Shown here: positions 7,957 through 34,297 of the stretch, piece after piece
How the letters are laid out: every line of letters begins with the position of its first letter
Numbering within the stretch: position 1 is the first letter of the stretch
Assembly: GCA_016179225.1 (NCBI GenBank)
Contig: JACORV010000039.1
Coordinates: forward strand, 1-49,920
Direction of reading: 5' to 3'
Length of the DNA: 49,920 nucleotides
DNA from: Gemmatimonadota bacterium
GTDB lineage: Bacteria; Gemmatimonadota; Gemmatimonadetes; Gemmatimonadales; JACORV01
The notes under the pieces: generated by a model
The model's input: only the letters and a program-made list of their open reading frames with translations
What the model was told of the DNA's origin: nothing
Databases searched by the model: none
Translations under genes and position numbers: made by a program

Positions 7957-8199
7957 ATGACCGCCGAGAAGATCAGGACGTTCATCACGCAGATGTCCAT
8001 GGACGCAAGCGGGAGCGCCATCGCCGACGACACGCCGCTGCTGGACTCCGGCGTCATGGATTCGATGGGGGTGCTGGAGCTCGTGACGTTCCTGGAGTCC
8101 GAGTTCGGAGTCAAAGTCCAGGACGAGGAGATCGTTCCCGAGAACTTCGAGACGGTGGTCCGCATCGCCGCGTTCGTCGAATCCAAGAAGCGGGGCTAG
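7957..8199 (+). CDS. Acyl carrier protein (copy A)
   Basis: 80 aa. The phosphopantetheine-site context is LLDSGVMDSMGVLELVTFLE. About 65% identical to the 16182..16442 product. Confidence 0.85.
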   Translation: MTAEKIRTFITQMSMDASGSAIADDTPLLDSGVMDSMGVLELVTFLESEFGVKVQDEEIVPENFETVVRIAAFVESKKRG

Positions 8200-8411
8200 G
8201 CGCGCCCGGTCTGGCCGCCGCCGTAGCGCCGCAGCCGCCCCGGACCTGGCGCGCCGCCCCCAGGGCGGACGCGGCGCCGCGGCGCGCGCTCGCGAGTCTC
8301 GGCGACTTCCTCTACCTGCTCTATCCGCTGCTTCCGCGAAGCTGGATCTTCGCCACGGCCAGGCTCCGGGGCACGCTCCAGGACCTGCTGCGCACGCGGG
8401 CGCGACGCATC

Positions 8412-9221
8412 GTGCGCGCCAACTACGCCACGCTGTTCCCGGACCGGACCGCGGCCGAACTCGACGCGCTGACGCGGCGGTTCCTCCAGAACCAGCAGTC
8501 TCAGAACCTCCTGGTGATGCTCGCGTCGCGGCTCCGGACCGAGGAGCTGGCGCGCCTGGCACCGTTCGAGCGGCTGGACCGCCTCGAGTGGGCGCTGGCG
8601 CAGAAAAAGGGCGTAATCGTGCTCGTCTCGCACATCAACTCAGCGTCGTTCTTCGCCGGGAACGTGTGGCTGCGGCGGTCCGGCTTCGACGTGCGCGTGG
8701 CGATGCCCATCGTGCGCGACCCGTGGGACCGGACGTGGCTCAGGATTCTTGCCGACGGCATCGCCGGCATCGCGCCGATCAAGGACCAGCTGGGGTGCTT
8801 CTACTGCCAGTTCAACTTGCGGCCCATCGTCGAGCGCCTGAAGGAAGGCGCCGCGGTGGCCCTCACCGGCGACGGCTGGCATTCGGCCGGCTTCGTCGAG
8901 GTCGAGTTCCTGGGCCGCAAGGTGCCGTTCACCACCGGGGCGCTCTCTATCGCCCGGTCGAGCGGTGCGGTCGTGGTGCCGGTGTTCGCCACCGGGGCGC
9001 CGCCCGACCGCCTGCGGTTCGTGTTAGAGGAGCCGTTCACCGTCTCGCGTGAGGGGCCCTCCAAGCGCGCCGTGCAGGCGGCGGCGACGGCGTACGCCTT
9101 GCGCGTCGAGCACCACCTCTTGCGGAATCCGGCGTCGTGGCAACACTTGCTGGAGGAGGATGTGTTTGAAACGATGGCGACCTGGCAGCAGCGGACCCTG
9201 ACGGAGCGGTACGACCTGTAG
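8412..9221 (+). CDS. LpxL/HtrB-like acyltransferase, copy 2 (start uncertain)
   Basis: In-frame homology to copy 1 already begins near 8290 (DFLYLLYPLLPRSWIFATARLRG). However, no ATG/GTG/TTG exists in frame between the ACP stop (8199) and GTG 8412. Contains VLVSHINSASF. Confidence 0.7.
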   Translation: MRANYATLFPDRTAAELDALTRRFLQNQQSQNLLVMLASRLRTEELARLAPFERLDRLEWALAQKKGVIVLVSHINSASFFAGNVWLRRSGFDVRVAMPIVRDPWDRTWLRILADGIAGIAPIKDQLGCFYCQFNLRPIVERLKEGAAVALTGDGWHSAGFVEVEFLGRKVPFTTGALSIARSSGAVVVPVFATGAPPDRLRFVLEEPFTVSREGPSKRAVQAAATAYALRVEHHLLRNPASWQHLLEEDVFETMATWQQRTLTERYDL

Positions 9222-9231
9222 CGGGGACCGG

Positions 9232-10428
9232 ATGATGGATGTGCCGCGGTCGTGTGACGTCGTCGTGATCGGAGGCGGTCCCGGCGGCAGCCTTGGGGCG
9301 ACATACCTGGCCCGGAAGGGGTACGACGTGGTGCTGCTCGACAAGGAGAAGCACCCGCGCTACCGGGTGGGCGAGAGCCTCATCCCGCACATGTGGAAGT
9401 ACCTCCGCCTCGGCGGGGCCGAAGAGAAAATCCTGAACGACGGATTCATCAAGAAGACGGGCGGCACCGTGATCTGGAACGGAGTCATCCGGGAGCTCGT
9501 CTTCGGCCAGTTCGGGTTCGACCGGCCCGCTATGCACGTAGAGCGCGACCGCTACGATCAGATCCTGTTCGAGCACGCCAAGGCGCAGGGCGTGCGGGCC
9601 TTCGAAGAGATGACGGTGCTGGGCGTGGACCTTAACGGCGGCGAGCGACCGTCGGTGCGGTTCCGCGCGGCGGGTGACGACGCGGTGGGGACGATCGCCT
9701 GCCGGTACGTGATTGACGCCAGCGGGCAGAACGCGGTCATCGCCAAGCAGCTCGGTGTTCGCGAGATCGATGAGGGCTTCCGGTTCATGAGCCTGTGGGG
9801 GTACTTCCTCGATTCGAAGTACGTGGCCCTGGGCGGCAAGGTGCACCCGTTCAAGGACCTCAACCAGACGCCGCCCACGACGTTCGTGTGCTCCGTGGAT
9901 GAGCTGGGCGAGTGGGGATGGCTGTGGCACATCCCCCTGCGTGAGAGCACCAGCATCGGCCTGGTGGTGCCGGTCGAGCAGCTGCAGGTGGTGAAGAAGA
10001 GCGACGAGGCGCTGGAGAAGTACTTCCTCCGGAAGTGCTACGAAGTTTCCTATCTCGGAAGGCTGCTGGAAGGCGCGACGTACCTCGAGGGCAGCTTCCA
10101 CGTCATTCGCGACTACTCCTACCGAACCAGCCTTTACGCCGGGCCTGGGTTCTACCTGGTCGGCGACGCGGCAGCCTTCGTAGACCCGCTCTTCTCGGTG
10201 GGCGTCGTCTTCGCGATGTACTCGGCGTTCGCGGCGAGCTGGGCGGTAGACCGTTCGCTGCGCCGCCCCGAAATCGCGGAGAGCAACCGCGCCATCTTCT
10301 CGCGCCAGATCTCGGGCCGGCTCGAGGTCGCTCGCGCGCTCGCGCTCCCGCGCTACGCCAAGTTGGAGAGGCCAGCGACTTCGCTCGGCTGTCCATCCAG
10401 TTCGAGAGCGCGCTGGAGAAGGAGCTGA
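9232..10428 (+). CDS. FAD-dependent halogenase-like oxidoreductase, copy A. Apparently frameshifted near 10363-10366, with the homologous C-terminus continuing in another frame to 10547.
   Basis: GGGPGG dinucleotide-binding motif, GFIKKTGGTVIW lysine region, WLWHIP (9919..9936) and GDAAAFVDPLFSVG. The tail of ORF 10035..10547 (FESALEKELMYTVASLSTRGDN) aligns with the copy B C-terminus (PLLRERLIVLFSGGYDKID). Confidence 0.75.
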   Translation: MMDVPRSCDVVVIGGGPGGSLGATYLARKGYDVVLLDKEKHPRYRVGESLIPHMWKYLRLGGAEEKILNDGFIKKTGGTVIWNGVIRELVFGQFGFDRPAMHVERDRYDQILFEHAKAQGVRAFEEMTVLGVDLNGGERPSVRFRAAGDDAVGTIACRYVIDASGQNAVIAKQLGVREIDEGFRFMSLWGYFLDSKYVALGGKVHPFKDLNQTPPTTFVCSVDELGEWGWLWHIPLRESTSIGLVVPVEQLQVVKKSDEALEKYFLRKCYEVSYLGRLLEGATYLEGSFHVIRDYSYRTSLYAGPGFYLVGDAAAFVDPLFSVGVVFAMYSAFAASWAVDRSLRRPEIAESNRAIFSRQISGRLEVARALALPRYAKLERPATSLGCPSSSRARWRRS

Positions 10429-10617
10429 TGTACACCGTCGCGTCGCTCTCCACGCGCGGCGACAATCTGCTCGACTTGGTCGCGGACGAAGGCAGAGAAA
10501 AGATCACGGCCAAGCGGTTCAACGTCATCAAGGAACTGACGTTCTAGCCGGCCGCCGGGGCGTCACGCCTAGGGGCGCCGGTTGCACCGCTACCACGTTC
10601 AGAAAAGGCCCACTGCG

Positions 10618-10806
10618 ATGATTCGGGAGAGTCTGGCTCGGGTATGGCGGGAGCATCGCCGCGCGGTGCTGGCGGCGGCGATCCTCGCCTGGACGGTTGG
10701 GATCGTGTTCGCGTACCAGAAGGTCAAGCCGAAGCTGCCAGCGGGGATGGCGACGCCGCCCCCGGGCGCCCGGGTCCTGGAGGTCGGCGCGCTGCCGGTA
10801 ACCTGA
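10618..10806 (+). CDS. Small signal-anchor ORF ending at TGA. Probably the N-terminus of the downstream substrate-binding protein (see findings).
   Basis: MIRESLARVWREHRRAVLAAAILAWTVGIVFAYQKV... has one TM helix. It is in frame with 10831..11754. The ORF is open from TTG 10582. Confidence 0.5.
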   Translation: MIRESLARVWREHRRAVLAAAILAWTVGIVFAYQKVKPKLPAGMATPPPGARVLEVGALPVT

Positions 10807-10838
10807 AACCTCACCGGCCCGATCGCCTGTATGGCGAT
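10804..10838 (+). other. In-frame UGA plus downstream hairpin: candidate Sec recoding element (copy A)
   Basis: TGA 10804-10806. Stem ATCGCC 10822-10827 pairs with GGCGAT 10833-10838, with loop TGTAT. It lies within a 64-nt block (10777..10840) that is 62/64 identical to 16617..16680. Confidence 0.4.
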
Positions 10839-11754
10839 GCAAAACGGGACCGACAGCGTGATGGGCGGGATGGCGATGGAAGAGGGCGACAGCCTTGTCA
10901 TACCCGACAGCCTCGGGAACATGGTCGCGCGTTTCACCCGCTACAGCGGGTGGCCCGAGCTCAAGGAAGCGTTGCTCGCGGGCCGGGTGGGCGCCGCCTA
11001 CCTGCTCGCCCCGCTGGCGATGGACCTCGCGGACCGGGGCCTGCCGGTGCGCGTCGTCGCGCTCGGCCACCGTTCCGGCGCGGTCATCATGGTCAAGAAG
11101 GACAACGCCGCCCGCAACCTCGGCGATCTGCGCGGCAAGCGCGTGGCGATCCCAAGCCGCTTCGCGGTGGATCACCTCTTCGTGCGGCGGCTGATGCAGC
11201 AGCACGGCCTGCGCGACGGCGACCTCACGTTGGCCGAGATGGCCCCGCCGGACATGCCGGCCGCCCTTTACGCGGACGCGGTGGATGCCTACGCCACGGG
11301 CGAGCCGTTCGGCGCGCAGGCGGAGCGGGACGGGTACGCGCGCGTCCTTCACTCGACGCGGACCGACTGGCCGAACTACATCTGCTGCGTGCTGGCCGTC
11401 CGGACCGACATGATCCAGCAGGTGCGCCCGGTCGTGCAGCGTCTGGTGGACGACGTCATGTCCGCCGGCGTGTGGCTCGATCGTGACTCCCTGAACCGGG
11501 TGCAGGCCGCGCGGATCGCCGGCCGTCCGGAGTTCTTCAACATGGATCCATCGCTCATCCAGTACGTGCTCGAGCATCCGCACGACCGGGTGACCTACGG
11601 CGACCTCCGCCTCATCCGCACCGAGCTGGACGAGCTGATGAACCTGGCCCTCACGGCCCGGATCATCCAGCACCCGATTCCGTACGAGACGTACGCGGAC
11701 GAGAGCTTCATGCGGCGCCGCCGTCACCGGGAGATACGTTTTGTCGGGCAGTAA
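10831..11754 (+). CDS. ABC transporter substrate-binding protein, NMT1/SsuA/TauA-like (copy A). Conservative ATG-initiated coordinates.
   Basis: 307 aa, with GDLRGKRVAIPSRFAVDHLFVRRLM and YATGEPFGAQA typical of nitrate/sulfonate/taurine-type SBPs. This ORF has no signal peptide of its own. Confidence 0.85.
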   Translation: MAMQNGTDSVMGGMAMEEGDSLVIPDSLGNMVARFTRYSGWPELKEALLAGRVGAAYLLAPLAMDLADRGLPVRVVALGHRSGAVIMVKKDNAARNLGDLRGKRVAIPSRFAVDHLFVRRLMQQHGLRDGDLTLAEMAPPDMPAALYADAVDAYATGEPFGAQAERDGYARVLHSTRTDWPNYICCVLAVRTDMIQQVRPVVQRLVDDVMSAGVWLDRDSLNRVQAARIAGRPEFFNMDPSLIQYVLEHPHDRVTYGDLRLIRTELDELMNLALTARIIQHPIPYETYADESFMRRRRHREIRFVGQ

Positions 11755-12502
11755 GTGGAGGACGCTGATCCCCGTCGCGGTGGTCGCGGCCCTGGTGGCG
11801 GGGTGGTGGGCGGCGGTGGTGAAGACGCACACGCCTTATTTCCCGACCCCCTGGCAGGTCGCCGCGGGGATGGCGGAGCTGGCGCGCAACGGCACGCTGG
11901 TGCAGCACGTCGTGGCGTCGCTGATGCGCGTGACTGTCGGGTACGGGATCGCGGTCATGGTCGCGATCCCGCTCGGCGTGCTGATGGGATGGTTCGGCGG
12001 GCTCTACCTCGCGCTCAATCCCGTCATCCAGATGCTGCGTCCGATCTCGCCGATCGCGTGGATCCCGCTCGCCATCCTCTGGTTCGGCGTCGGCAACCTC
12101 TCGCCGATGTTCCTCATTTTCCTGTCGTCGTTCTTCCCGATGGTGGTCGGGACGGCCTCCGGCGTGCACAGCGTGGACCGGCAGTACATCCGCGCCGCGC
12201 GGAACTTCGAGATCACCGGGCACCGCCTACTCCGCCAAGTGGTGGTGCCCGCCGCGCTGCCGCAGATCATCGTCGGCATGCGGCTCGGCCTCGGCATCGC
12301 GTGGCTCGTCGTCGTCGCGGCGGAGATGGTCGCGCTCGATTCGGGCCTCGGCTACCTGATCATCGATTCGCGCAACGCCGGCAACCGGTACGACCTCGTG
12401 GTCGCGGCGATGGTCATCATCGGCGTGATCGGGTTTCTCCTCGATACCCTCATGCGACGCCTCGAGCGGCTCGAGGAAGTGGCCTGGCGCTATGCCCGGT
12501 AG
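11741..12502 (+). CDS. ABC transporter permease (SsuC/TauC/NrtB-type, copy A)
   Basis: 253 aa with about 6 TM helices. EAA-like loop RAARNFEITGHRLLRQVVVPAALPQI. TTG start overlaps the SBP stop by 14 nt. Confidence 0.9.
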   Translation: MSGSKWRTLIPVAVVAALVAGWWAAVVKTHTPYFPTPWQVAAGMAELARNGTLVQHVVASLMRVTVGYGIAVMVAIPLGVLMGWFGGLYLALNPVIQMLRPISPIAWIPLAILWFGVGNLSPMFLIFLSSFFPMVVGTASGVHSVDRQYIRAARNFEITGHRLLRQVVVPAALPQIIVGMRLGLGIAWLVVVAAEMVALDSGLGYLIIDSRNAGNRYDLVVAAMVIIGVIGFLLDTLMRRLERLEEVAWRYAR

Positions 12503-13280
12503 CATTTCCGCGAAGGGCCTCTTCAAGGCGTTCCCCACGCCGAAGGGCCCGCTCCCGGTCATCGAGGACCTGAGCCTCGACATCGCGGACGGAGAGTTCG
12601 TCGCGCTCATCGGGCCGTCGGGGTGCGGTAAGTCGACCTTCCTCGACATCCTGGCGGGGTTCGAGCGCCCGGATCGGGGGTCGCTGGCCGTGGACGGGCA
12701 GCCCATCGTGGGCCCCAGCCGCAAGCGGATCCTGATCCCCCAGCAGACGTCGGTTTTCCCGTGGCAGAGCGCGCGCCGGAACCTGACCTTCGTGCAGGAT
12801 GGCGTGACCGAGGAAGAGAAGAAGAGGCTCTCGCTCGACTACGTGAACCTGGTCGGGCTCGAGGGATTCGACCAGACGTATCCGCACCAGCTCTCGGGCG
12901 GGATGCTGAAGCGCCTCGAGCTCGCTCGGGCGCTGATCGTGAAGCCGGACATCCTGCTCATGGACGAGCCGTTCGGCCCGCTCGACGCGCTCACCCGCAT
13001 CCGACTCCATGCCGAGCTGCTCCAGATCCTCTCGGTGGAGCGGCACACCACGCTATTGGTGACGCACGACGTGCACGAGGCGCTCTATCTGGCGGACCGC
13101 ATCGTCGTGTTCACGCCGCGGCCCGCGCGCATCCAGTGCATCGTGGACGTCCCCTTCCAGCACCCCCGCGCCCTGGTGGGCGGAGACATCGTGCGGCTCA
13201 AGGCCCGGATCCTCGTGGAGCTGGGCCTCTCGCCTGACGGGAGCTTCGACCGGAGCAAGCGACCCGCCTCTGGCGGATGA
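12492..13280 (+). CDS. ABC transporter ATP-binding protein (copy A)
   Basis: Walker A GPSGCGKST, signature LSGGMLKR, Walker B ILLMDEPF, H-loop VTHD. Confidence 0.9.
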   Translation: MPGSISAKGLFKAFPTPKGPLPVIEDLSLDIADGEFVALIGPSGCGKSTFLDILAGFERPDRGSLAVDGQPIVGPSRKRILIPQQTSVFPWQSARRNLTFVQDGVTEEEKKRLSLDYVNLVGLEGFDQTYPHQLSGGMLKRLELARALIVKPDILLMDEPFGPLDALTRIRLHAELLQILSVERHTTLLVTHDVHEALYLADRIVVFTPRPARIQCIVDVPFQHPRALVGGDIVRLKARILVELGLSPDGSFDRSKRPASGG

Positions 13281-13307
13281 GGCTCCCGCCGGCGCAGCGC
13301 CTAACGC

Positions 13308-14708
13308 CTACAACGTGAACTGTAGTGTCAGGTAGCCGAAATCGACCCCCTTGCTGGGGCCGGACTGCCGGATGAACTCGCCTGGCCAGCAGTGGCTGTA
13401 TCCCGTCACGACCAGCAAGTGGCGGCCCACCGGGTACCGTACGGTCACGTCGAGCTCGGAGCCGATGTCCTTGGACGTGCCGGCGGCTCCGGATCGAACG
13501 GCGCCCGCTGGTGGTGGCAGGAAAGGCGCAAGCGGGCCATACAGGCCGTCTTTCCCGCTGGCGCGCTGGAAACGGTGGAAGTCCACCGCGGTGCTCACCG
13601 CACGCCGCAGCCGGACCGATAGCCCGCCGCTCAGATCCACCACGTTCTGTCGTCCCGCCACGTCCATGAAGCCCAGATACGCGTGTGCGAGCGGAAAGAG
13701 CTGGTTGAACGTCTGCACGTCGGCGACTGCGCTGTCCTTGTCGCCGCTCGCGTAGTCCAGGTTGAGGTAGACGCGCGGCGCGCCCCGCACCTGGGGCAGG
13801 CTGTACCCGACCTGACCCGCAAACATGTACGCGCGGATCTTCCCCGGGCCGACTGTTCCAAACTGCCATGCGGCCTCGGCCTCGTAATCCAGGCGGGCTC
13901 CCTGGCGGGTCGGCCCCCACACGCGCGCGCCGATGGTCTGGCGCTCTTCGCGTCCTGCCGTTCCATTGAACCTGGCGCTGGCCCGCCGGAGGCCCAGCCA
14001 GTAGGCGTCCACCCCGATCACGGTGCGCGGCGGTCTCGCGGTCGCGTACAGGCCGTAGAAAGTAGTCGCCGAATCGCGCTCGTTGAATTCGTACTTGTTG
14101 ACGAGAACCGGACGGGTGAGAAACGCGCTCACGGCGCCGCTCGGGAACGAAAAGGACCCGGAATACCCCTCGAACGTGCGCCTGGTATTCGTCCAGTCGA
14201 GCGGGCTGATCAACCGCTCGCGGCCGTAGGCGAGCTCTTGCCGCCCCACCCGAAATGCGAGCGCTCCAGATCCGGCATGTGGGAATCGAAGCTCGCCGTA
14301 GAATTGTTGGAGATCGAGCTCGTCTTGATCGACGACCCTGATACCGCCCTGGAGCGAGCGGCTGTCGACGGTGGCGCTCTTGCCTTGGACGAAAAACCTG
14401 AGACGGTCGTAGACGTGCAGGTCGGCGGACAGGAAGAGGCGTGTCAGCGTGAAGAAGTCGTCGTGGTCGGCCGTAGGGGGAGCCCCGAAGTTGAAGCCGG
14501 TCCAGCTCTCCACCCGCTCCCTAAGCTGCCCGCCGAATCCGACCCAGAGCCCTCCGCCGGAGCTGAGCCGGACGTGTTTGATCGTGTCAAACCGGTCCCG
14601 TGGCTGGGCCTGCTGGGCGAAAAGCCCGAAGGGGCCGAGCGTCAGCGCAACAGCTGTGGCGCCAGCCCACCTCCAAGCCCATGGAAATGCCGGAAAGGCA
14701 GTCGGCAT
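13308..14708 (-). CDS. Outer-membrane beta-barrel protein, alginate-export (AlgE-like) family
   Basis: The ORF is open to 14816. I prefer ATG 14708 because it has a GGGAGG SD 5 nt upstream and gives a signal peptide MPTAFPAFPWAWRWAGATAVALTLGPFGLFAQQ. The sequence has an alternating beta-strand pattern, with FGGQLRERVESW and a C-terminal ...YLTLQFTL. Confidence 0.65.
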   Translation of the reverse strand: MPTAFPAFPWAWRWAGATAVALTLGPFGLFAQQAQPRDRFDTIKHVRLSSGGGLWVGFGGQLRERVESWTGFNFGAPPTADHDDFFTLTRLFLSADLHVYDRLRFFVQGKSATVDSRSLQGGIRVVDQDELDLQQFYGELRFPHAGSGALAFRVGRQELAYGRERLISPLDWTNTRRTFEGYSGSFSFPSGAVSAFLTRPVLVNKYEFNERDSATTFYGLYATARPPRTVIGVDAYWLGLRRASARFNGTAGREERQTIGARVWGPTRQGARLDYEAEAAWQFGTVGPGKIRAYMFAGQVGYSLPQVRGAPRVYLNLDYASGDKDSAVADVQTFNQLFPLAHAYLGFMDVAGRQNVVDLSGGLSVRLRRAVSTAVDFHRFQRASGKDGLYGPLAPFLPPPAGAVRSGAAGTSKDIGSELDVTVRYPVGRHLLVVTGYSHCWPGEFIRQSGPSKGVDFGYLTLQFTL

Positions 14709-14782
14709 CCGGCCTCCCAGAAGATGTTGATCCAGGCCAACCTGCGACGGCGGACCAAGTATCGTGATGGGTGTTACTGCCG

Positions 14783-14796
14783 GCAACTCTCGTGCC
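14783..14796 (-). promoter_or_regulatory. Candidate sigma-54 promoter for the outer-membrane barrel gene
   Basis: The reverse complement of 14781-14800 reads ATAGGGCACG-AGAG-TTGCCG. The GC element lies 75 nt upstream of ATG 14708. Confidence 0.55.
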
Positions 14797-14832
14797 CTAT
14801 CATATTGGTGCCGCATAGGTTAACCTTGATCG

Positions 14833-14847: not shown

Positions 14848-14921
14848 ATATCGTGGGGCGATTTTTTTGTCGGCCCCAGCTGGAGCCCGCAACCCGATAC
14901 TTGGATTCGAGAAGGGAAGTC

Positions 14922-16169
14922 GTGAGCGCAGAGCGATTCGACGTCATCGTCGTGGGCGGAGGTCCGGGTGGCACGAGCACCGGCATCATGCTCGCCAAGC
15001 GGGGCTACAAGGTGCTCCTCCTCGAGCGGGAGCGATTCCCGCGTTTTCACATCGGTGAGTCGCTGCTCCCGGCGCTGTGGGACCTCTGGGACGAGCTGGG
15101 CGTCACGGCGGAGATGGAAGCGGTCGGCTTCGTCATCAAGCAGGGCATCAACTTCGCGATGTTCGAGCCGCCGACCGAGATCGCGCTCCTCACGGGCGAG
15201 TTCCCGCGCTACTTTCAGCGGCCGTACACCTACCACGTCGAGCGGGCCAGGTACGACCAGATCATGCTCGAGCACGCCCGGCGCTGCGGCGTGGACGCGC
15301 GCGAGGAGTGGACGGTCGAGGACGTGCTGTTCGAGGGGGACCGGTGCGTCGGCGTGGTGGCGGGCCCGAACGGCCAGCCGGGCCAGCCGTACCACGCGCC
15401 CATGGTGGTGGACGCGACGGGCCGCAACTGCCTGATGTCGCGCAAGCTGGGGTGGCGCAAGCCCGACCCCACGCTGAACAAGCTTTCCCACTTCACGCAC
15501 TACCAGGGGGCGGACCCTCGGGACCACGATGGTACGACGATGACCGAGATCCACAGCATCGACGGCGGGTGGATCTGGTACATCCCGCTCACCGGCGACA
15601 TCGTGAGCGTGGGCGCCGTGCTCGACGCGAAGGCCTTCGGGAGCCAGAAGGGCCCGCAGGCGCGCTTCGATCACGCGGTGGCGGGCTGCCCGAAGATCCG
15701 CGAGTGGGTCGAGGGCGCGCGCCAGACGATCGACATGCACACGATCTCGAACATCTCCTATCTGAACGACAGCTTCGTCGGCAACGGGTTCGTGCTGGTG
15801 GGCGACGCCTCGATGTTCGTGGACCCGATCTTCTCCGCGGGGGTGACGATCGCCGTCCGCGGCGGCATCTTCGCGGCCGAGTGCATCCACGACTGCTTCC
15901 AGCGCGGCGACTTCAGCGCCGAGCGGATGAGCCCCTACGAGGCCAGGATCCGGCTCCCGATGAGCCGCATCTTCAGGATGATCTACAACTGGTACGGGAT
16001 TCTGGAGAAGAAGGACCCGAACAATCTCATCGCCCGGTCCCGCCGCGTCCCGCTGCTGCGCGAGCGGCTCATCGTGCTCTTCAGCGGCGGCTACGACAAG
16101 ATCGACATGGAAGCCATCCTGCAGGCAGCAGGTGCCGACGCCCAGGGCAACCCGCTCCAGCCCGCGTGA
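14922..16169 (+). CDS. FAD-dependent halogenase-like oxidoreductase, copy B
   Basis: This is the C-terminal 415 codons of ORF 13683..16169. GTG 14922 follows GAAGGGAAG. Motifs VVGGGPGGTSTG, GFVIKQGINF, WIWYIP (15570..15587) and GDASMFVDPIFSAG. Confidence 0.85.
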   Translation: MSAERFDVIVVGGGPGGTSTGIMLAKRGYKVLLLERERFPRFHIGESLLPALWDLWDELGVTAEMEAVGFVIKQGINFAMFEPPTEIALLTGEFPRYFQRPYTYHVERARYDQIMLEHARRCGVDAREEWTVEDVLFEGDRCVGVVAGPNGQPGQPYHAPMVVDATGRNCLMSRKLGWRKPDPTLNKLSHFTHYQGADPRDHDGTTMTEIHSIDGGWIWYIPLTGDIVSVGAVLDAKAFGSQKGPQARFDHAVAGCPKIREWVEGARQTIDMHTISNISYLNDSFVGNGFVLVGDASMFVDPIFSAGVTIAVRGGIFAAECIHDCFQRGDFSAERMSPYEARIRLPMSRIFRMIYNWYGILEKKDPNNLIARSRRVPLLRERLIVLFSGGYDKIDMEAILQAAGADAQGNPLQPA

Positions 16170-16181
16170 GGATCATTCCGC

Positions 16182-16442
16182 ATGTCCGCTGAACAAAGGC
16201 TACTGACCTTCCTCGCCCAGACCTTCCCGCGCGAGGAGGGCAAGGCGATCACGCCCTCCGATCCGCTGCTCGACGAGGGGCTCATCGATTCGGTCGGCAT
16301 CTTCGAGCTGGTGGCGTTCATCGAGCGGGACTTCGGGGTGAACGTGCAGGACGAAGAGATCGTGCCCGAGAATTTCGAGACGGTGGCGCACATCGCGCGC
16401 TTCGTCGAGCGGAAACAGCAGGCCCGCTCGACCGCGAGCTAG
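16182..16442 (+). CDS. Acyl carrier protein (copy B)
   Basis: 86 aa, with LLDEGLIDSVGIFELVAFIE and the same VQDEEIVPENFETV tail as copy A. Confidence 0.85.
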   Translation: MSAEQRLLTFLAQTFPREEGKAITPSDPLLDEGLIDSVGIFELVAFIERDFGVNVQDEEIVPENFETVAHIARFVERKQQARSTAS

Positions 16443-16475
16443 ACGCGCCTCGCCGCGTCTCCACGGAGGAAAGTC

Positions 16476-16646
16476 TTGAATCGTCTGTACCGCGAGCACC
16501 GGCGCGCCGTCCTCCTGGTCGCCGTGCTGCTCTGGGTCGTCTTCATCACCGTCGTCTATCAGCTCAGTAAGCCTCGAGACGTGAGCGCGCTGCCGCCCGG
16601 CACGCCGGCCCTGACGCTGGAGGTCGGCGCGCTGCCCGTCACCTGA
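16476..16646 (+). CDS. Small signal-anchor ORF ending at TGA. Probably the N-terminus of the downstream substrate-binding protein (copy B).
   Basis: TTG 16476 lies 5 nt after GGAGGA (16465-16470). Translation: (M)NRLYREHRRAVLLVAVLLWVVFITVVYQLSKPRDVSALPPGTPALTLEVGALPVT*. In frame with 16671..17597. Absent from the ORF track because it is under 60 aa. Confidence 0.5.
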   Translation: MNRLYREHRRAVLLVAVLLWVVFITVVYQLSKPRDVSALPPGTPALTLEVGALPVT

Positions 16647-16678
16647 AACCTCACCGGCCCGATCGCCTGTATGGCGAT
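16644..16678 (+). other. In-frame UGA plus downstream hairpin: candidate Sec recoding element (copy B)
   Basis: TGA 16644-16646. The stem-loop is identical to copy A: ATCGCC 16662-16667 pairs with GGCGAT 16673-16678. Confidence 0.4.
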
Positions 16679-17597
16679 GCGCATGGAGGCTGGTCAGGAC
16701 ATGGCGGGGATGGAGATGACGGGGGGCGGGGACAGTCTGCGGGTCGAGGAGCGCGGCGTCGCGCTGGTGGCGCACTTCACGCGCTACAGCGGATGGCCCG
16801 AGCTGAAGGAAGCCTTCATCGCGGGCAACGTCGGTGCGGCGTACCTGCTGGCGCCGCTGGCGATGGACCTGGCCGACCGGGGCGTGCCGGTCCGCATCGT
16901 CGCGCTCGGCCACCGGTCAGGTGCCGTGATCATGGTACGGAAGGACAGCCCGGCACGGAACCTGGGCGACTTGCGCGGCAAGCGGGTGGCGATCCCAAGC
17001 CGGTTCGCCGTGGACCACCTCTTCGTCCGCCGGCTGATGCGGCAGCACGGCCTGCTTGACGGGGAGGTGCAGCTGGTCGAGCTCGCGCCGCCGGACATGC
17101 CCGCGGCCCTCTACGCGGACGCCGTGGACGCCTACGCCACGGGGGAGCCGTTCGGGGCGCAGGCGCAGCGCGAGGGATACGCCCGGGTGCTCCATTGGAC
17201 CCGCGACGAATGGCCGGACTACGTCTGCTGCGTGCTCGCGGTGCGGACCGACCTCATTCGGGATGTGCGTCCGCTGGTGCAACGGTTGGTGGACAACGTG
17301 CTCTCGGCGGGGGTGTGGCTGGAGGGCGACTCGACCAACCGGCTCCGGGCCGCCGACCTCGCGGCGCGGCCGGAGTACTTCAACCAGGACCCGGCGCTGC
17401 TGCGGTTCGTGCTGACGAACCCTCGGAACCGGGTGACGTACGGCGACCTGCGGCTGATCCGTCCACAGCTCGAGGAATTAATGAACCTGGCGCTCGAGGC
17501 GCGCGTCATCGACCACCCGATCCCGTACGAGACATATGCGGACGAGAGCTTCCTTCGCGCCTATCGGCCCAGGGAGATCCGCATTGAGCAGAGATAG
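16671..17597 (+). CDS. ABC transporter substrate-binding protein, NMT1/SsuA/TauA-like (copy B)
   Basis: 308 aa, about 80% identical by eye to copy A across the domain. No signal peptide of its own (MAMRMEAGQDMAGMEMTGGGD...). Confidence 0.85.
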   Translation: MAMRMEAGQDMAGMEMTGGGDSLRVEERGVALVAHFTRYSGWPELKEAFIAGNVGAAYLLAPLAMDLADRGVPVRIVALGHRSGAVIMVRKDSPARNLGDLRGKRVAIPSRFAVDHLFVRRLMRQHGLLDGEVQLVELAPPDMPAALYADAVDAYATGEPFGAQAQREGYARVLHWTRDEWPDYVCCVLAVRTDLIRDVRPLVQRLVDNVLSAGVWLEGDSTNRLRAADLAARPEYFNQDPALLRFVLTNPRNRVTYGDLRLIRPQLEELMNLALEARVIDHPIPYETYADESFLRAYRPREIRIEQR

Positions 17598-18345
17598 CCG
17601 GTCCGATTTCTGGCCGTTCCTCCTCGTCGGTCTCCTGATCGCGGGCTGGTGGGTATCCGTGGTGGTGTCGAAGACGCCGTACTTCCCCACGCCGTGGGCG
17701 GTCGTGCTGGGCATCGTCGAGCTGGCGCGCAACGGCACGCTGGTGCAGCACGTCTCGGCGTCCCTGATGCGGGTGACTTACGGCTACCTCGCGGCCGTGG
17801 CCATCGCCATCCCGCTCGGCGTGCTCATGGGTTGGTTCGGTCGGGTGTACCGGGCCGTCAATCCGCTCATCCAGCTGCTGCGGCCGATCTCGCCCATCGC
17901 GTGGATCCCGCTGGCGATCCTCTGGTTCGGGGTCGGCAACCTCTCGCCGATGTTCCTCATCTTCCTGTCGTCGTTCTTTCCGATGGTCACGGGCACCGCG
18001 GCCGGCGTGCACACGATCGAGAAGCAATACATCCGCGCGGCGGAGAACTTCGGGATCAGGGGGGTGCGCCTGCTGCGGCAGGTGGTGCTGCCCGCCGCGC
18101 TGCCGCAGGTCATCGTCGGGATGCGTCTCGGGCTGGGGATCGCCTGGCTGGTGGTCGTCGCGGCGGAGATGGTCGCCATCAATTCGGGACTCGGTTACCT
18201 CATCATCGACTCGCGCAACGCGGGAAACCGGTACGATCTCGTGGTCGCGGGGATGGTGCTCATCGGCGTGATCGGGTTCCTGCTCGACATCGCCATGAGG
18301 AGCCTCGAGGGGCTGGACGAGGTGAGGTGGCGGTATGTCCGGTAG
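17584..18345 (+). CDS. ABC transporter permease (copy B)
   Basis: The ORF is open from ATG 17536. TTG 17584 reproduces the 14-nt overlap geometry of copy A. Highly similar to 11741..12502. Confidence 0.85.
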   Translation: MSRDSRSDFWPFLLVGLLIAGWWVSVVVSKTPYFPTPWAVVLGIVELARNGTLVQHVSASLMRVTYGYLAAVAIAIPLGVLMGWFGRVYRAVNPLIQLLRPISPIAWIPLAILWFGVGNLSPMFLIFLSSFFPMVTGTAAGVHTIEKQYIRAAENFGIRGVRLLRQVVLPAALPQVIVGMRLGLGIAWLVVVAAEMVAINSGLGYLIIDSRNAGNRYDLVVAGMVLIGVIGFLLDIAMRSLEGLDEVRWRYVR

Positions 18346-19087
18346 CATCGTCGCCACCGGGATCCACAAGAGCTTCTCCTCCAGGCAGGGCGCGCTCTCG
18401 GTCATCGAGGGCATCGACCTCAGCGTGGCGGATGGCGAGTTCGTCGCGCTGGTGGGGCCGTCGGGGTGCGGAAAGTCGACGCTGCTCGACATCCTGGCCG
18501 GCTTCGTGAGGCCCGACCGCGGTGAGGTGCAGATCGACGGCGAGCCGGTGGGGAGTGCGAACCCGCGCCACATCCTGATCCCGCAGCAGCCGTCGGTGTT
18601 CCCGTGGCTCACCGCGCGCCGCAACATCACCTTCGTGCTCGACGGCGTGCCGGACGGGGAGCAGCGGCGGCTCGCGTTCCATTATCTCGACCTGGTGGGC
18701 CTCGAGGGCTTCGACCAATCGTACCCGCACCAGCTCTCCGGGGGGATGGTCAAGCGCCTCGAGCTGGCGCGCGCCCTCGCGGTGAAGCCGGACGTGCTCT
18801 ACATGGACGAGCCGTTCGGCGCGCTCGACGCCCTCACCCGGCGCAAGATGCGCGACGAGCTGCGCCGGATCCTCCTGGTCGAGCGGCACACCGCGCTGCT
18901 CGTCACCCACGACGTCGAGGAAGCCCTGCACCTGGCCGACCGCATCGTCGTCATGTCGCCGCGCCCGACCAAGATCCAGTGCATCGTCGACGTGCCGTTC
19001 CCGCACCCACGCAGGCTGGTAAGTGTCGAGATGATTAGGCTGGCGGCCCTCATCCTCTCCGAGCTGGGCGTCGAAACGGAGTCGTGA
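18335..19087 (+). CDS. ABC transporter ATP-binding protein (copy B)
   Basis: Walker A GPSGCGKST, signature LSGGMVKR, Walker B VLYMDEPF. Confidence 0.9.
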   Translation: MSGSIVATGIHKSFSSRQGALSVIEGIDLSVADGEFVALVGPSGCGKSTLLDILAGFVRPDRGEVQIDGEPVGSANPRHILIPQQPSVFPWLTARRNITFVLDGVPDGEQRRLAFHYLDLVGLEGFDQSYPHQLSGGMVKRLELARALAVKPDVLYMDEPFGALDALTRRKMRDELRRILLVERHTALLVTHDVEEALHLADRIVVMSPRPTKIQCIVDVPFPHPRRLVSVEMIRLAALILSELGVETES

Positions 19088-20652
19088 TCTACCTCCTCCA
19101 TCACCTGCTGCCCGAAAGCGCGAGCCGGTTCCCCGACCGTACGGCGGTCCGGTTCGGCGAGGACCGGCTCACCTACGCCGACCTGGAAGCGCAGGCCGGC
19201 AGGCTCGCCGCCGCCCTGGTCGAGGCCGGGGTGAAAAAGGGCGACCGGGTCGGAATCCACTTCCACAAGTCGGCGCGGTCGGTGGTGGCCGTATTCGCCG
19301 TGCTGAAGGCCGGCGGCATCTACGTGCCGCTGGACCCCAACTCCCCGCGCGCGCGTATCGCCCGCATCATCGAAGACTGCGGCATCCGGCACCTCATCGC
19401 GTCCCAGGAGAAGCTCGGCGCCCTGATGGCCGGCACGCCGGAGGCCCCGGCGCCGGCGCTGGACGCCGCGTTCCTGGTGGACAGTGAGACGGCCGAGCCG
19501 GGCACGAGCGTGAAGCGGGTCGTGGGGTGGGGCGAAGTGGAGAAGCTGACGCCGCTCGCCGGCCCGGCGGACGGGGTGGACGGCGACCTCTCGTACATCC
19601 TCTACACGTCGGGCTCCACGGGCATCCCCAAGGGCGTGATGATCTCGCACCGGGCCGCGTTCGCCTTCGTGAACTGGACGCACGACGCCTTCGGGATGAG
19701 CGAGCGCGACGTGGTCTCGAACCACGCGCCGCTCCACTTCGATCTCTCGATCTTCGATATCTTCACGACTATCAAGGCGGGCGGGACGGTGGTGCCGGTG
19801 CCGGAGCGCCTCTCGACCTTCCCGGTACGCCTCGCGGAGTTCATCCGCGACCAGCGCATTACCTGCTGGTACTCGGTGCCCTCGGCGCTCACGATGATGC
19901 TGCTCCGCGGCAACCTCGCCAAGCACAGCTATCCGGACCTCCGTCTGGTCCTTTTCGCGGGAGAGGTCTTCCCGGTCAAGTACCTGCGCGAGGTCATGAG
20001 GTGCTTCCGAGCGAGCTTTTGGAACCTCTTCGGCCCGACCGAGACGAACGTCTGCACGGCATACGAGGTGACGGAGCTACCGGAGGATCGGACCGAGCCG
20101 GTGTCCATCGGGAAGGCGATTGGCAACTACGACGTGTTCGCGCTGAATAACCGGGGCGAGATCGCGGCGGTGGGCGAGGAGGGCGAGCTGTACGGTCGGG
20201 GCCCCGGCATCATGTCGGGGTACTGGGGGGACGTCGAGAAGACCGACCGCGTTCTGGTGCCCAACCCGCTGCCCGCGCCCTTCGAGGAGAGGGTGGTCCG
20301 GACGGGGGACATCGTGGTGCTCGAGGCGGACGGCAATTACACCTACCGCGGCCGCCGCGACAACATGGTGAAGAGCCGGGGCTATCGCATCGAGATCGGG
20401 GAGATCGAGACCGCGCTGTACGGCCACGCGAAGATCACCGAGGCCGCAGTGGTCGCGATCCCCGACGAGGAGGTCACGAATCGCCTCAAGGCCTACGTGG
20501 TGACGGACCCACCGGGCGCGCTCAGCGCGCTGGACGTCCAGCAGCACTGCCGCTCTCGCGTCCCCAAGTACATGATCCCCGAGATGGTGGAGTTCCGGGA
20601 TGTTCTCCCGAAGACCTCCACCGGCAAGGTGGACAAGCAGTCTCTCAAGTGA
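19084..20652 (+). CDS. AMP-forming acyl/aryl-CoA (or ACP) ligase, adenylation superfamily
   Basis: 522 aa. Motifs LSYILYTSGSTGIPKGV (A3), YGPTE-like FGPTETN, YRTGD-like VRTGD and C-terminal PKTSTGKVDK. GTGA overlap with the ATPase stop. Confidence 0.9.
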   Translation: MIYLLHHLLPESASRFPDRTAVRFGEDRLTYADLEAQAGRLAAALVEAGVKKGDRVGIHFHKSARSVVAVFAVLKAGGIYVPLDPNSPRARIARIIEDCGIRHLIASQEKLGALMAGTPEAPAPALDAAFLVDSETAEPGTSVKRVVGWGEVEKLTPLAGPADGVDGDLSYILYTSGSTGIPKGVMISHRAAFAFVNWTHDAFGMSERDVVSNHAPLHFDLSIFDIFTTIKAGGTVVPVPERLSTFPVRLAEFIRDQRITCWYSVPSALTMMLLRGNLAKHSYPDLRLVLFAGEVFPVKYLREVMRCFRASFWNLFGPTETNVCTAYEVTELPEDRTEPVSIGKAIGNYDVFALNNRGEIAAVGEEGELYGRGPGIMSGYWGDVEKTDRVLVPNPLPAPFEERVVRTGDIVVLEADGNYTYRGRRDNMVKSRGYRIEIGEIETALYGHAKITEAAVVAIPDEEVTNRLKAYVVTDPPGALSALDVQQHCRSRVPKYMIPEMVEFRDVLPKTSTGKVDKQSLK

Positions 20653-32759: not shown

Positions 32760-33404
32760 CTAGCCCGGGAGGGCCGCGCCAAGGGCCGGCAGGATCTCGG
32801 TCGCGACGCGCGACGCCAGCCTGAAGGCGCTCTCTTCGTTGTCGGTGATCGGGACCATCACCCGCACCAGCGCTTCCTCACTGCGCCGGCGCAGCGCGGC
32901 GTCGCGCAGGAGATTCCACTTCACGACGTACTCGCTCGACTCGATGCGACCGCGGCCCTGGTACCAGTACAGCACCAGCGCCCGGTCCGCGCCCTTCTGG
33001 ATCAGGTAGCGGTTCACCGCGACCGCGCCGCCCGGGGCGGGGATGCGCGCCGTGGTCGAGGCGAGCGCCTCCCAGCCGGATCCCGGCAGGCAGTTCTTCG
33101 GCGAGTGGATCGTGCGGCCCTGGGTCTGGCTCTCGTAGTAGCCGACGAAGAGGTAGGCGGTGTGCCCGGGATCCGCCTCGGCGTTGGCGTACACGCGCAC
33201 CAGGTAGTCGTCCACGCCCGCGGCCTGCCGTTCCTCCGCAGCCAGCACCCCGTCGCGTCCGCGGTAGTCGGCAACGGCGGCCGGCAGCGCGGCGGTGAGC
33301 GTCGTGCGCAGTGGGAAGCTCCGCTGCGTGTTGATTCCCACCGTCAGCAGGGCTCCCCCCACCAGGAGGGCGGCGGGCGCCCAGCCCGCCAGCGGCCGCC
33401 TCAT
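32760..33404 (-). CDS. EpsI-family exosortase-associated protein
   Basis: This is the C-terminal 214 codons of ORF 32760..34139. ATG 33404 forms an ATGA overlap with the exosortase stop. It has an N-terminal anchor plus HSPKNCLPGSGW and LVLYWYQ motifs typical of EpsI. Confidence 0.8.
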   Translation of the reverse strand: MRRPLAGWAPAALLVGGALLTVGINTQRSFPLRTTLTAALPAAVADYRGRDGVLAAEERQAAGVDDYLVRVYANAEADPGHTAYLFVGYYESQTQGRTIHSPKNCLPGSGWEALASTTARIPAPGGAVAVNRYLIQKGADRALVLYWYQGRGRIESSEYVVKWNLLRDAALRRRSEEALVRVMVPITDNEESAFRLASRVATEILPALGAALPG

Positions 33405-34297
33405 GGCGTCCTCCGCCAGCCCTCGGCCAGATGGAGCACCCACGCCACCCCGCCCAGAATTGTGAACGCAGCCACGAATAGCGCCCAACCCTCGGTGTAG
33501 TGCATCACCCCGTCCCCCAACTCCGGGCTGACGAAGAAGACGAGGAACCCGGTGAGGAAGATCCTGAGGCCGTTGAGCAGCATTGCCACCGGGATGGCCG
33601 CGAGCACCAGCATGAGGCGCGACCACGGCGAGCGCAGCCACAGCCCGCCGATCAGCACGCCGAGGGCGATAAGCGCGGTGAGCGACCGGAGTCCGCTGCA
33701 CGCCTCGGTGACAAACAGGGAGCGTCCCGGCAACCTGATCACGTTCCCGGCGAGCGCGACCGGCACGTGGCGCGCCTCGAGCAGCGTCGCCCCGAACTCC
33801 GAGGCCTTGAGCTGCAGCGGGAGCGCCAGGCTGCTCAGCACGACGGCGGGGAGCGGGATGGACAGCAGGAGGAGGAGGGCGGAAAGCCACCAGTGCACGA
33901 GCTGGCGGACCCCGAGCCCGTAAACGAGAAGGGCGCCCAGCGCGCCCATCATCGAGAGCCGCATCGTGAACGGCTCCGCGGCGAGGCCCGAGACGTACCG
34001 GAGGAGCACCGCCCCGGCCAGCATGGTGAGGCCGAGGACGTGCTGAGGCCGCGGGCTGGAAACCCGCCCGCGACGCCAGGCGAGAACGATGGCTAGAGGA
34101 CCCAACAGGAGACCGTGCCCCGCGTCGGGGGCGCGCCACCAGTCCCCGACCAGGCTCACCATAGGCTGAAAGAAGAGAACCAGGTAACCTAGCCCCGCCG
34201 CGAGCATCGGGACCAGGACCCTCCAGTCAGCCGACGCCACGCGCCCGAGCGTGAGGGTCACACCGGTCACACTACCATGCGCCCCGCCTGAAGACAA
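33401..34297 (-). CDS. Exosortase (EpsH/Xrt family transpeptidase)
   Basis: 298 aa, polytopic. Catalytic-type motifs VTEACSGLRSL (Cys), LLNGLRI (Arg) and MHYTEGW (His). The start is uncertain: TTG 34297, GTG 34270 or GTG 34263. Confidence 0.85.
   Translation of the reverse strand: MSSGGAHGSVTGVTLTLGRVASADWRVLVPMLAAGLGYLVLFFQPMVSLVGDWWRAPDAGHGLLLGPLAIVLAWRRGRVSSPRPQHVLGLTMLAGAVLLRYVSGLAAEPFTMRLSMMGALGALLVYGLGVRQLVHWWLSALLLLLSIPLPAVVLSSLALPLQLKASEFGATLLEARHVPVALAGNVIRLPGRSLFVTEACSGLRSLTALIALGVLIGGLWLRSPWSRLMLVLAAIPVAMLLNGLRIFLTGFLVFFVSPELGDGVMHYTEGWALFVAAFTILGGVAWVLHLAEGWRRTP

Follow-up and report, generated by a model that had tools for sequence, protein, structure and literature searches.

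An in-frame UGA, most likely a selenocysteine codon, in the binding subunit of a putative metal-binding transporter

In canonical bacterial selenoprotein genes, such as those of the E. coli fdhF type, an in-frame UGA is followed within the coding sequence by a stem-loop, the bacterial SECIS (bSECIS). According to the consensus model summarised in PMC13188914, this element has an apical loop of 3-9 nt, an upper stem of 4-16 bp, a G in the first two loop positions, 16-37 nt between the UGA and the loop, and a minimum free energy of -7.5 kcal/mol or lower. Among transporters, selenocysteine (Sec) has been described in the SAO (selenocysteine-assisted organometallic) ABC system (Haft & Gwadz, bioRxiv 10.1101/2022.07.06.499078), whose SaoX subunit is an SsuA-fold substrate-binding protein (SBP) with a CC motif and further Cys residues predicted to converge in the cleft, and is a selenoprotein in one species. 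Other SBPs of the NitT/TauT type are related to 3UN6, a ligand-binding protein of S. aureus that was crystallised with Zn, and include those associated with clade-B CODH (PMC6344411, PMC13592312). For 3UN6-like SBPs, a metal site of 2 Cys plus 1-2 His has been modelled, the metal is discussed as a possible cofactor, and the substrate is unknown (PMC13592312).

Here, a pair of paralogous loci was analysed in a 49,920-nt stretch of DNA from a Gemmatimonadota bacterium (hereafter, the window; GCA_016179225.1, contig JACORV010000039.1). A sequence-only reading had proposed that, in both copies, a UGA is decoded rather than used as a stop, and that the RNA surrounding it is constrained. The relevant features, all on the forward strand, are as follows.

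16465-16470, forward: Shine-Dalgarno-like GGAGGA, 5 nt upstream of the TTG start of copy B
16476-17597, forward: copy B, read as one selenoprotein gene of 373 codons plus stop, for a membrane-anchored SsuA/NMT1-fold (NitT/TauT-type) ABC substrate-binding protein with Sec at codon 57
16476-16643, forward: N-terminal segment previously read as a separate 56-aa ORF, comprising a TM signal anchor, a linker and strand beta1 (LEVGALPVT) of the SBP fold
16644-16646, forward: in-frame UGA, read as the selenocysteine codon (Sec57)
16662-16678, forward: bSECIS upper stem-loop, with 5' arm 16662-16667 (AUCGCC), apical loop 16668-16672 (UGUAU) and 3' arm 16673-16678 (GGCGAU); the apparent start ATG 16671-16673 lies inside it
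16617-16680, forward: identity island shared with 10777-10840, covering beta1, the U-x7-C motif and the SECIS
17536-18345, forward: permease of transporter B (longest ORF; the true start is probably TTG 17584, by analogy with copy A)
18335-19087, forward: ATP-binding subunit of transporter B
10618-11754, forward: copy A, the paralogous selenoprotein SBP gene, with a probable start at ATG 10618, although the ORF is open from TTG 10582, and the Sec codon at 10804-10806
10822-10838, forward: SECIS upper stem-loop of copy A, identical in sequence to that of copy B
11741-13280, forward: permease (11741-12502) and ATPase (12492-13280) of transporter A, paralogous to 17536-19087 at 77% and 66% amino-acid identity

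Each of the sequence observations behind that proposal was confirmed. TTG 16476, TGA 16644-16646 and ATG 16671 are in one frame, and the frame is also continuous across the TGA in copy A. The 56-codon ORF contains AVLLVAVLLWVVFITVVY, and its N-terminus, MNRLYREHRRAVLL..., resembles those of full-length homologues such as P0027 (MNRRVVLAV...). Read with Sec at the UGA, the junction becomes LPVT-U-NLTGPIACMAMR. The island is 62/64 identical between the two copies, which are 72% identical at the amino-acid level, and the two differences are synonymous (CCC/CCG and GTC/GTA). Sliding-window identity peaks at 0.95 over the island and is 0.42-0.57 immediately on either side; the island therefore does not extend beyond the junction. 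Nevertheless, within the paralogue pair alone, the excess of identity at synonymous sites is modest (16/18 identical codons against a background of 0.573, P about 0.004) and is tied with two permease stretches. So the island is largely a very conserved peptide, and the constraint on the RNA becomes decisive only when different species are compared. In this respect the sequence-only reading needs refinement, and the ATG at 16671, which it had considered as a possible site of re-initiation, is not a start codon.

Full-length homologues of 370-380 aa are single ORFs with Cys exactly at the position of the UGA (GALPVT[C/U]NLTxP[IV]AC), as observed in 19 of them, and the motif G[AG]LPVT-U-NL[TS]xP[IV]AC is conserved on both sides. 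Unbiased retrieval by distant protein motifs, across 160 independent loci, gave 41 unique TGA forms and 95 unique Cys forms (TGC or TGT), the former from Gemmatimonadota, Binatia, Rokubacteria, Thermodesulfobacteriota and Deltaproteobacteria MAGs. The family tree needs at least 6 Sec/Cys switches, and one locus, L081, is a fresh TGA-to-TGT convert with an intact fossil SECIS. A genome-wide reassignment of TGA was rejected, as this codon terminates 20 of the 37 other genes called in the window, where it is the commonest normal stop.

The stem proposed at 16662-16678 is real. It starts 15 nt after the UGA and folds at -9.7 kcal/mol (z = -3.6), with 0 of 200 shuffles folding as well. With its 5-nt loop and 6-bp stem, a G followed by U at loop positions 2-3, and 21 nt between the UGA and the loop, it satisfies all four published bSECIS criteria (PMC13188914). 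The hairpin is fully paired in 40/41 TGA forms but in only 2/95 Cys forms (Fisher p = 8e-31). Across 38 Sec forms, 99.6% of cells are paired, against 20-54% in slid controls, and RNAalifold predicts the same hairpin. One pair shows compensatory change (CG:31 / UA:5 / UG:1), with the C-G to U-A replacement in 5 sequences from two groups, although only this one of the six pairs covaries, and four are invariant and overlap conserved codons. Synonymous choices specific to the Sec forms are also observed: UGU for the second Cys in 41/41 against 22/95, CUC in 40/41 against 53/95, AAC in 40/41 against 59/95 (Fisher tests were applied to these three), and GCC in 41/41 against 68/95. Rfam gave no matches at gathering thresholds over the whole window and only chance hits around the hairpin at E up to 10, and it has no model that fits this bSECIS.

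It could be argued that the island is a recent short gene-conversion tract between the paralogues, or that the TGA marks pseudogenes or an assembly error, and the two permease stretches that reach the same synonymous identity are in line with this view. However, the same nucleotides are conserved in 39 further TGA-containing orthologues from other organisms, the ORF is intact on both sides in all of them, and identity collapses at once outside the 64 nt. Pseudogenes would not keep a Sec-specific hairpin with a compensatory change, and the 50-70% protein identity of the orthologous TGA forms argues against their being one recently transferred sequence. This explanation is thus contradicted by the cross-species data and is extremely unlikely.

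A second possibility is that there are two genes, as gene callers annotate the locus, with termination at UGA 16644 giving a 56-aa membrane peptide and re-initiation at ATG 16671 giving a 308-aa SBP. Databases hold many versions of 305-315 aa that start at this Met, including the window's own P0001 and P0015, and UGA is a genuine stop elsewhere in the window. Moreover, Sec insertion in bacteria is probably inefficient as a rule, so some termination product is likely to be made anyway. Nevertheless, the 308-aa product would lack a signal or anchor sequence, strand beta1 and two of the four conserved Cys/Sec; no Shine-Dalgarno-like motif precedes ATG 16671, which is buried in the hairpin; Cys homologues are single ORFs; and the hairpin and codon constraints specific to the TGA forms have no explanation under this model, which is considered very unlikely.

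The UGA might also be read through, but not as Sec, by a near-cognate Trp or Cys tRNA or a suppressor tRNA, with the hairpin acting only as a generic read-through stimulator or pause site, as downstream hairpins may do in other systems. No Sec machinery was seen in the available sequence: ARAGORN found no tRNA in the window and no tRNA-Sec in 31 Sec-form loci, and no selA, selB or selD was found in the flanks examined or by Pfam annotation of about 30 window genes. However, the position alternates only with Cys, which is the pattern expected for Sec and not for Trp. In addition, the hairpin meets the specific bSECIS rules, and the rare UGU codon fixed in the Sec forms is what supplies the G-U of the apical loop. 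This alternative is also very unlikely.

Taken together, 16476-17597 is one gene, not two, and, with high confidence although without experimental evidence of selenium incorporation, the UGA at 16644 is most likely decoded as selenocysteine by the standard bacterial route. By inference, and assuming that the Sec machinery is encoded outside the sequence examined, the hairpin would be bound by SelB carrying GTP and Sec-tRNA(Sec), which delivers Sec when the UGA reaches the ribosomal A site. The proposal of a decoded stop within constrained RNA is therefore supported, and two of the conditions it had set against itself, an island extending well beyond the junction and a stem not maintained in orthologues, do not hold. 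Consequently, both window genes, and many database entries of about 305-315 aa, would be truncated halves of one protein. The 41 Sec and 95 Cys forms, including the fresh convert, provide a clean data set for studying how SECIS elements are gained and lost inside coding sequence.

The product is a membrane-anchored SBP of a NitT/TauT-type ABC transporter, inferred to be an importer. It scores 93.9 bits against PF13379 (NMT1_2; threshold 24.7). In the AlphaFold model of P0002, a 70%-identical Cys homologue, strand E46-53 lies immediately before the Cys that aligns with the UGA (pLDDT about 90), and Foldseek matched the fold to 3UN6, 3UIF, 2X26, 2G29 and 6SSY, all with probability 1.00. The permease and ATPase genes that follow were confirmed with PF00528 and PF00005. 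No curated NCBIfam model reaches its cutoff for this family; with the aliphatic sulfonate SBP SsuA model (TIGR01728), the score is 104.3 bits against 163.5, so the substrate should not be assumed to be a sulfonate.

Sec57 lies in the loop between strand beta1 and helix alpha1 and, together with the invariant Cys65 and Cys251-Cys252, probably forms a soft-metal site of selenolate and thiolates. The metal is most likely copper, as Cu(I), but this rests only on inference from gene neighbourhood and composition. Orthologous operons either encode SCO1/SenC, sometimes with PCu(A)C, between the SBP and the permease, or else the SBP carries a Met-rich MxGMDM insert, as both window copies do. The two features are mutually exclusive: 91 loci have SCO1 only, 22 have the Met-rich stretch only, 0 have both and 1 has neither. 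SCO1 and PCuAC were confirmed by Pfam, and PCu(A)C, a dedicated copper chaperone, appears in several operons. Another recurrent neighbour, protein c4, has no Pfam, NCBIfam or PDB sequence match, and the idea that it is cupredoxin-like rests only on a C-x2-H-x4-M pattern; a further cluster, c5, was the antisense ORF of the SCO1 gene, an artefact of ORF calling. Neither window copy has an SCO1, PCuAC or c4 neighbour. Instead, they sit beside Trp-halogenase-like and ACP genes in an exopolysaccharide locus, which also includes acyltransferase and AMP-ligase genes.

Alternatively, the Sec/Cys cluster could hold a permanently bound metal or form a redox-active selenenylsulfide that captures a non-metal cargo, such as a small anion, a sulfur or selenium species, or a metabolite made by the neighbouring halogenase-like/ACP/adenylation enzymes, with SCO1 serving as its thiol-disulfide reductase and copper not being the transported substrate. 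Relatives of the fold bind sulfonates, nitrate, bicarbonate and PQQ, halogenase-like neighbours recur in 21 loci, and SCO1 has a thioredoxin fold and gives weak TlpA/ResA-type hits. Nevertheless, neither the exact substitution of an SCO1 neighbour by Met-rich inserts nor the presence of PCu(A)C is expected if copper is irrelevant, and this alternative is possible but doubtful. More speculatively, and less likely than not, this could be the founding example of a widespread family, seen in at least 545 species genomes, of SBP-dependent ABC copper importers, in which Cu(I) would be captured by a Cys3-Sec or Cys4 site fed by an operon-encoded SCO1/PCu(A)C relay or by a built-in Met-rich arm. Sec would then have been recruited repeatedly as a metal ligand in aerobic soil bacteria, a non-redox, extracytoplasmic use of this residue. 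A 2020 review of bacterial copper import (PMC7558416), which covers CcoA/CalT MFS importers, YcnJ, TonB-dependent NosA/OprC and chalkophore uptake, lists no SBP-dependent NitT/TauT-type ABC copper importer, and none of the listed systems uses selenocysteine. If the copper inference is right, the system would supply periplasmic or cytoplasmic copper alongside SCO1 and PCu(A)C chaperones, as those routes do.

In comparison with canonical selenoprotein genes of the fdhF type, the inferred mechanism is the expected one, and Cys-containing homologues that interconvert with Sec forms exist in both cases. However, the protein is an extracytoplasmic transporter subunit and not a redox enzyme, the hairpin is short, with 6 bp conserved and a lower helix that is not consistently predicted, and the two codons after the UGA (AAC CUC) are also fixed. 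The family is absent from the selenoprotein table of a 2026 review, as far as its text could be searched, and Sec occurs here in lineages such as Gemmatimonadota that are not classic Sec-rich anaerobes. No usable literature on the Sec trait in Gemmatimonadota was found.

The closest solved homologue is 3UN6 (E = 1.3e-38; TM-score 0.86 on the target), which shares the GWP(E/D), GH(R/H)xG and YxCCVL motifs. Its YCCVLVLR aligns with YxCCVLAVR, and its LPITHSANL with LPVT[U/C]NLTL, so that both have the CC pair, present in every locus of this family, and a putative metal-ligand residue in the beta1 loop. This residue is His in 3UN6 but Sec or Cys here, and this family adds a further Cys eight residues downstream, plus either a Met-rich insert or an SCO1 partner. 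No selenoprotein has been reported in the 3UN6 clade in the papers that could be searched.

Finally, among curated NCBIfam models, SaoP is the best hit for the window's permease (179.4 bits against a cutoff of 295), and SaoA is second to the nitrate NtrCD model for its ATPase (198.4 against 360), while the SBP scores 46.6 against 300 with SaoX (NF040735). All three subunits are therefore far below the SAO cutoffs. Scans of the neighbours with Pfam and NCBIfam recognised none of the other SAO families, although the SaoL/E/C/T/D models were not searched directly. Sec sits here in the beta1-alpha1 loop (PVT-U-NL) and not at the TU 191-192 site, neither window permease contains any Cys or in-frame TGA, and the hosts are mostly soil lineages rather than the strict anaerobes of the SAO system. 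The neighbours across the other loci are copper chaperones, not MerB-like lyases. Nevertheless, in both systems Sec is proposed to act as a metal ligand rather than as a catalytic residue, and the locus described here extends this idea of Sec as a soft-metal ligand.

The sequence-only reading had placed a GGAGGA motif, a TTG start, an in-frame TGA and a downstream ATG in copy B of the gene, and all of these coordinates are correct. In copy B, the 56-codon ORF that begins at the TTG has one hydrophobic helix, and this small ORF, the TGA and the downstream 308-codon ORF share one reading frame. The single reading frame also holds for copy A. The relevant features are as follows.

16465-16470, GGAGGA of copy B
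16476, TTG start of copy B
16644-16646, in-frame TGA of copy B
16671, ATG downstream of the TGA in copy B
10804, in-frame TGA of copy A
10831, ATG downstream of the TGA in copy A
16617-16680 (copy B) and 10777-10840 (copy A), island of nucleotide identity
16662-16678 (copy B) and 10822-10838 (copy A), hairpin with a 6-bp stem and a 5-nt loop

The two segments of the island are identical at 62/64 positions, and both differences are synonymous. In a sliding comparison of the two paralogous operons, identity is 0.95 over the island and 0.42-0.57 directly on either side. The island is short and centred on the junction. It had been argued from the sequence alone that such an island is expected if the stop codon is decoded and the surrounding RNA is constrained. 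Nevertheless, the paralogue comparison by itself is suggestive rather than decisive. Among codons that encode the same amino acid in both copies, 57% are identical overall, while in the island the figure is 16 of 18 (P about 0.004), a value that is also reached by two stretches of the permease. Much of the island is simply a highly conserved peptide, LEVGALPVT-x-NLTGPIACMAM.

The downstream ORF is an NMT1_2 / SsuA-like (NitT/TauT-type) ABC substrate-binding protein (SBP), and it is followed by a permease and an ATPase. In copy B, the longest permease ORF overlaps the end of the SBP gene by 62 nt (17536-17597), although a TTG at 17584 matches the start used in copy A (TTG 11741) and is the more likely start. 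When the read-through protein was used for a homology search, with Cys at the TGA, two length classes were returned: proteins of about 305-315 aa that begin at or just after the internal Met, and proteins of about 370-380 aa that cover the whole query. Every one of the 19 long homologues inspected is a single ORF, with an N-terminal anchor or lipoprotein signal followed by G[AG]LPVTCNL[TS]xP[IV]AC, where the first Cys lies exactly where the window has TGA. In the AlphaFold model of the closest full-length homologue (P0002, 70% identical, mean pLDDT 83), the first strand of the SBP fold lies immediately upstream of that Cys, and helix alpha1 starts just after it. The UGA therefore splits a single domain. 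This bears on the possibility that translation terminates at the UGA and re-initiates at ATG 16671, since a protein started there would be a non-exported, incomplete domain lacking its export signal, strand beta1 and two conserved Cys/Sec residues. In addition, this ATG, which is used as the start by gene callers, sits inside the loop and 3' arm of the hairpin and has no Shine-Dalgarno-like motif upstream.

Orthologous loci were retrieved through protein motifs far from the junction (GWPE[LIV]KEA and HRSGAV[IV]M[VT]). This yielded 80 loci from species genomes, with at least 545 species holding a relative, and 80 loci from metagenomes. The codon at the critical position is TGA in 41 unique sequences and TGC or TGT in 95. 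The TGA forms come from Gemmatimonadota, Binatia, Rokubacteria, Thermodesulfobacteriota and Deltaproteobacteria MAGs, while the Cys forms are mostly from Steroidobacteraceae, Burkholderiales, Longimicrobium and Myxococcota. A neighbour-joining tree of the SBP domain needs at least six Sec/Cys switches. Locus L156 is a Sec form with Thr instead of Asn after the Sec (PVT, the Sec position, then TLTLPIACMAM), and locus L009 carries two tandem SBP genes of this family with an SCO1 gene between them (10001-13500).

The TGA forms share the consensus UGA AAC CUC ACN NNN CCN RUY GCC UGU NNG GCR AU, whose last 17 bases form the hairpin. This hairpin satisfies each criterion of the bacterial SECIS consensus quoted in PMC13188914.

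Comparison of the hairpin with the bacterial SECIS consensus (criterion; required; found)
Apical loop; 3-9 nt; 5 nt
Upper stem; 4-16 bp; 6 bp
G in the first two loop positions; yes; G at position 2, followed by U
Distance from UGA to loop; 16-37 nt; 21 nt
Free energy; -7.5 kcal/mol or lower; -9.7 kcal/mol

As the hairpin overlaps the conserved peptide [IV]AC[MRKTQS]AM, sequence conservation alone proves little, and four other comparisons are more informative. First, the hairpin is fully paired in 40 of 41 TGA forms but in only 2 of 95 Cys forms (Fisher p = 8e-31). Second, synonymous choices are fixed only in TGA forms: the second Cys is the rare UGU in 41/41, against 22/95 in Cys forms, and supplies the loop G-U; Ala is GCC in 41/41; and the codon after UGU always ends in G. 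Third, the one stem pair that can vary synonymously does covary, being C-G in 31 sequences, U-A in 5 (from two sequence groups) and U-G in 1, with one mismatch. Overall, 99.6% of cells are paired, against 20-54% when partners are slid. Finally, RNAalifold independently predicts the same hairpin.

One of the two fully paired Cys forms, the metagenome locus L081 (1450-2562), is the sister of a TGA form, L082 (4001-5110). L081 differs from the Sec consensus only by TGA to TGT and still carries the complete hairpin and every Sec-type synonymous codon, so it looks like a fresh one-base Sec-to-Cys conversion with a fossil SECIS. Fixed codons also lie outside the conserved 6-bp hairpin. The two codons immediately after the UGA (16647-16652 and 10807-10812) are AAC CUC in 40/41 Sec forms but vary synonymously in Cys forms (AAC/AAT 59/36; CTC/CTG/TTG/CTT 53/35/5/2), perhaps because of lower-helix pairing or a release-factor/SelB context effect. 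Both paralogues can extend the hairpin with a lower helix (16653-16694 and 10813-10853), which uses the shared 5' strand (CCGGCCC) but different 3' partners that lie outside the identity island. Nevertheless, a lower helix is not predicted in all orthologues.

Other explanations of the UGA fare less well. TGA terminates 20 of 37 other genes in the window, and thus it is not reassigned in this genome. A pseudogene, an assembly error or a gene-conversion tract cannot explain 41 intact, diverged orthologues that share a TGA-specific hairpin. Similarly, read-through with an amino acid other than Sec does not explain the exclusive alternation with Cys, or the SelB-type loop. The main gap in the Sec reading is that no selA, selB, selC or selD is present in the window or in any fetched flank, although the rest of the genome could not be examined.

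Within the window, the two transporters are part of a duplicated module composed of a Trp-halogenase-like FAD enzyme, an ACP, the SBP, the permease and the ATPase. The two halogenase-like genes are only 23% identical, whereas the transporter genes are 66-77% identical. The module and its surroundings are arranged as follows.

About 7957-13280, first copy of the module
13311-14816, minus strand, alginate-export-type porin lying between the two copies
About 14913-19087, second copy of the module
19084-20652, adenylating enzyme
33404-34297 and 34275-35003, an exosortase (EpsH) and a sugar transferase, 13 kb downstream

The adenylating enzyme passes the amino-acid adenylation domain model (TIGR01733) and resembles the exosortase-A-associated ligase. 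Lipid-A-type acyltransferases and an acyl-CoA dehydrogenase are also found around the modules, and all of this is embedded in an exosortase and exopolysaccharide locus with EpsH, sugar transferases, Wzz and Poly_export. Related Gemmatimonadota loci share the halogenase-like, ACP and ligase neighbours.

The function of the protein can only be inferred. Three Cys residues are conserved alongside the U/C position: C65 was present in nearly every locus, and the C251-C252 pair in every family member retrieved. The closest solved structure by both sequence and fold is 3UN6, a S. aureus SBP of unknown function crystallised with zinc (E = 1.3e-38; TM-score 0.86 on the target). It has His at the U/C position (LPITHSANL, residues about 40-50) and keeps the CC pair (YCCVLVLR, residues about 215-225). 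SBPs similar to 3UN6 have been modelled with a metal bound by two Cys and one or two His, and their substrate remains unknown (PMC13592312, PMC6344411).

Across the 160 loci, the commonest gene order is SBP, then SCO1/SenC, sometimes PCu(A)C, then a protein of about 150 aa here called c4, and then permease and ATPase. PCu(A)C appears in 8 loci, 7 of them Sec forms. The c4 protein lies between SCO1 and the permease in L010 (12227-12721), L058 (11615-12064) and 35 further loci, and has one TM helix and, in most copies inspected, a C-x2-H-x4-M pattern. It has no Pfam, NCBIfam or PDB sequence match, although it may be cupredoxin-like. A Met-rich insert (4 or more Met) after the U/C-x7-C motif and an SCO1 neighbour are mutually exclusive: 22 loci have the insert only, 91 have a Met-poor linker and SCO1, 0 have both and 1 has neither. 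Both window copies are of the Met-rich type (MAMRMEAGQDMAGMEM...; 16680-16760 and 10840-10920). Two alternative copper-capture devices attached to the same transporter point to Cu(I) as the ligand of a site made of Sec or Cys plus three Cys. This remains an inference, however, as it does not rest on measured side-chain geometry, SCO1 might serve as a reductase for the SBP rather than as a copper chaperone, and the metal might be a cofactor for binding some other cargo.

The recoding mechanism proposed here is canonical, and this functional hypothesis is more novel but unproven. The family was not found in the searchable text of the 2026 selenoproteome review, no NCBIfam model reaches its cutoff, and a 2020 review of copper import lists no such ABC system. 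Among curated NCBIfam families, the permease is closest to SaoP, while for the ATPase, SaoA scores second to the nitrate NtrCD model. Both SaoP and SaoA are subunits of the SAO system, whose SBP, SaoX, also has a Cys cluster and is occasionally a selenoprotein (bioRxiv 10.1101/2022.07.06.499078). As all scores are far below the cutoffs, the transporter is a relative of that system and not a member. Selenoprotein SBPs are already known, namely SaoB, SaoX and a BtuF form. By contrast, the family described here has Sec at a different position from the known selenoprotein SBPs and is linked to copper chaperones.
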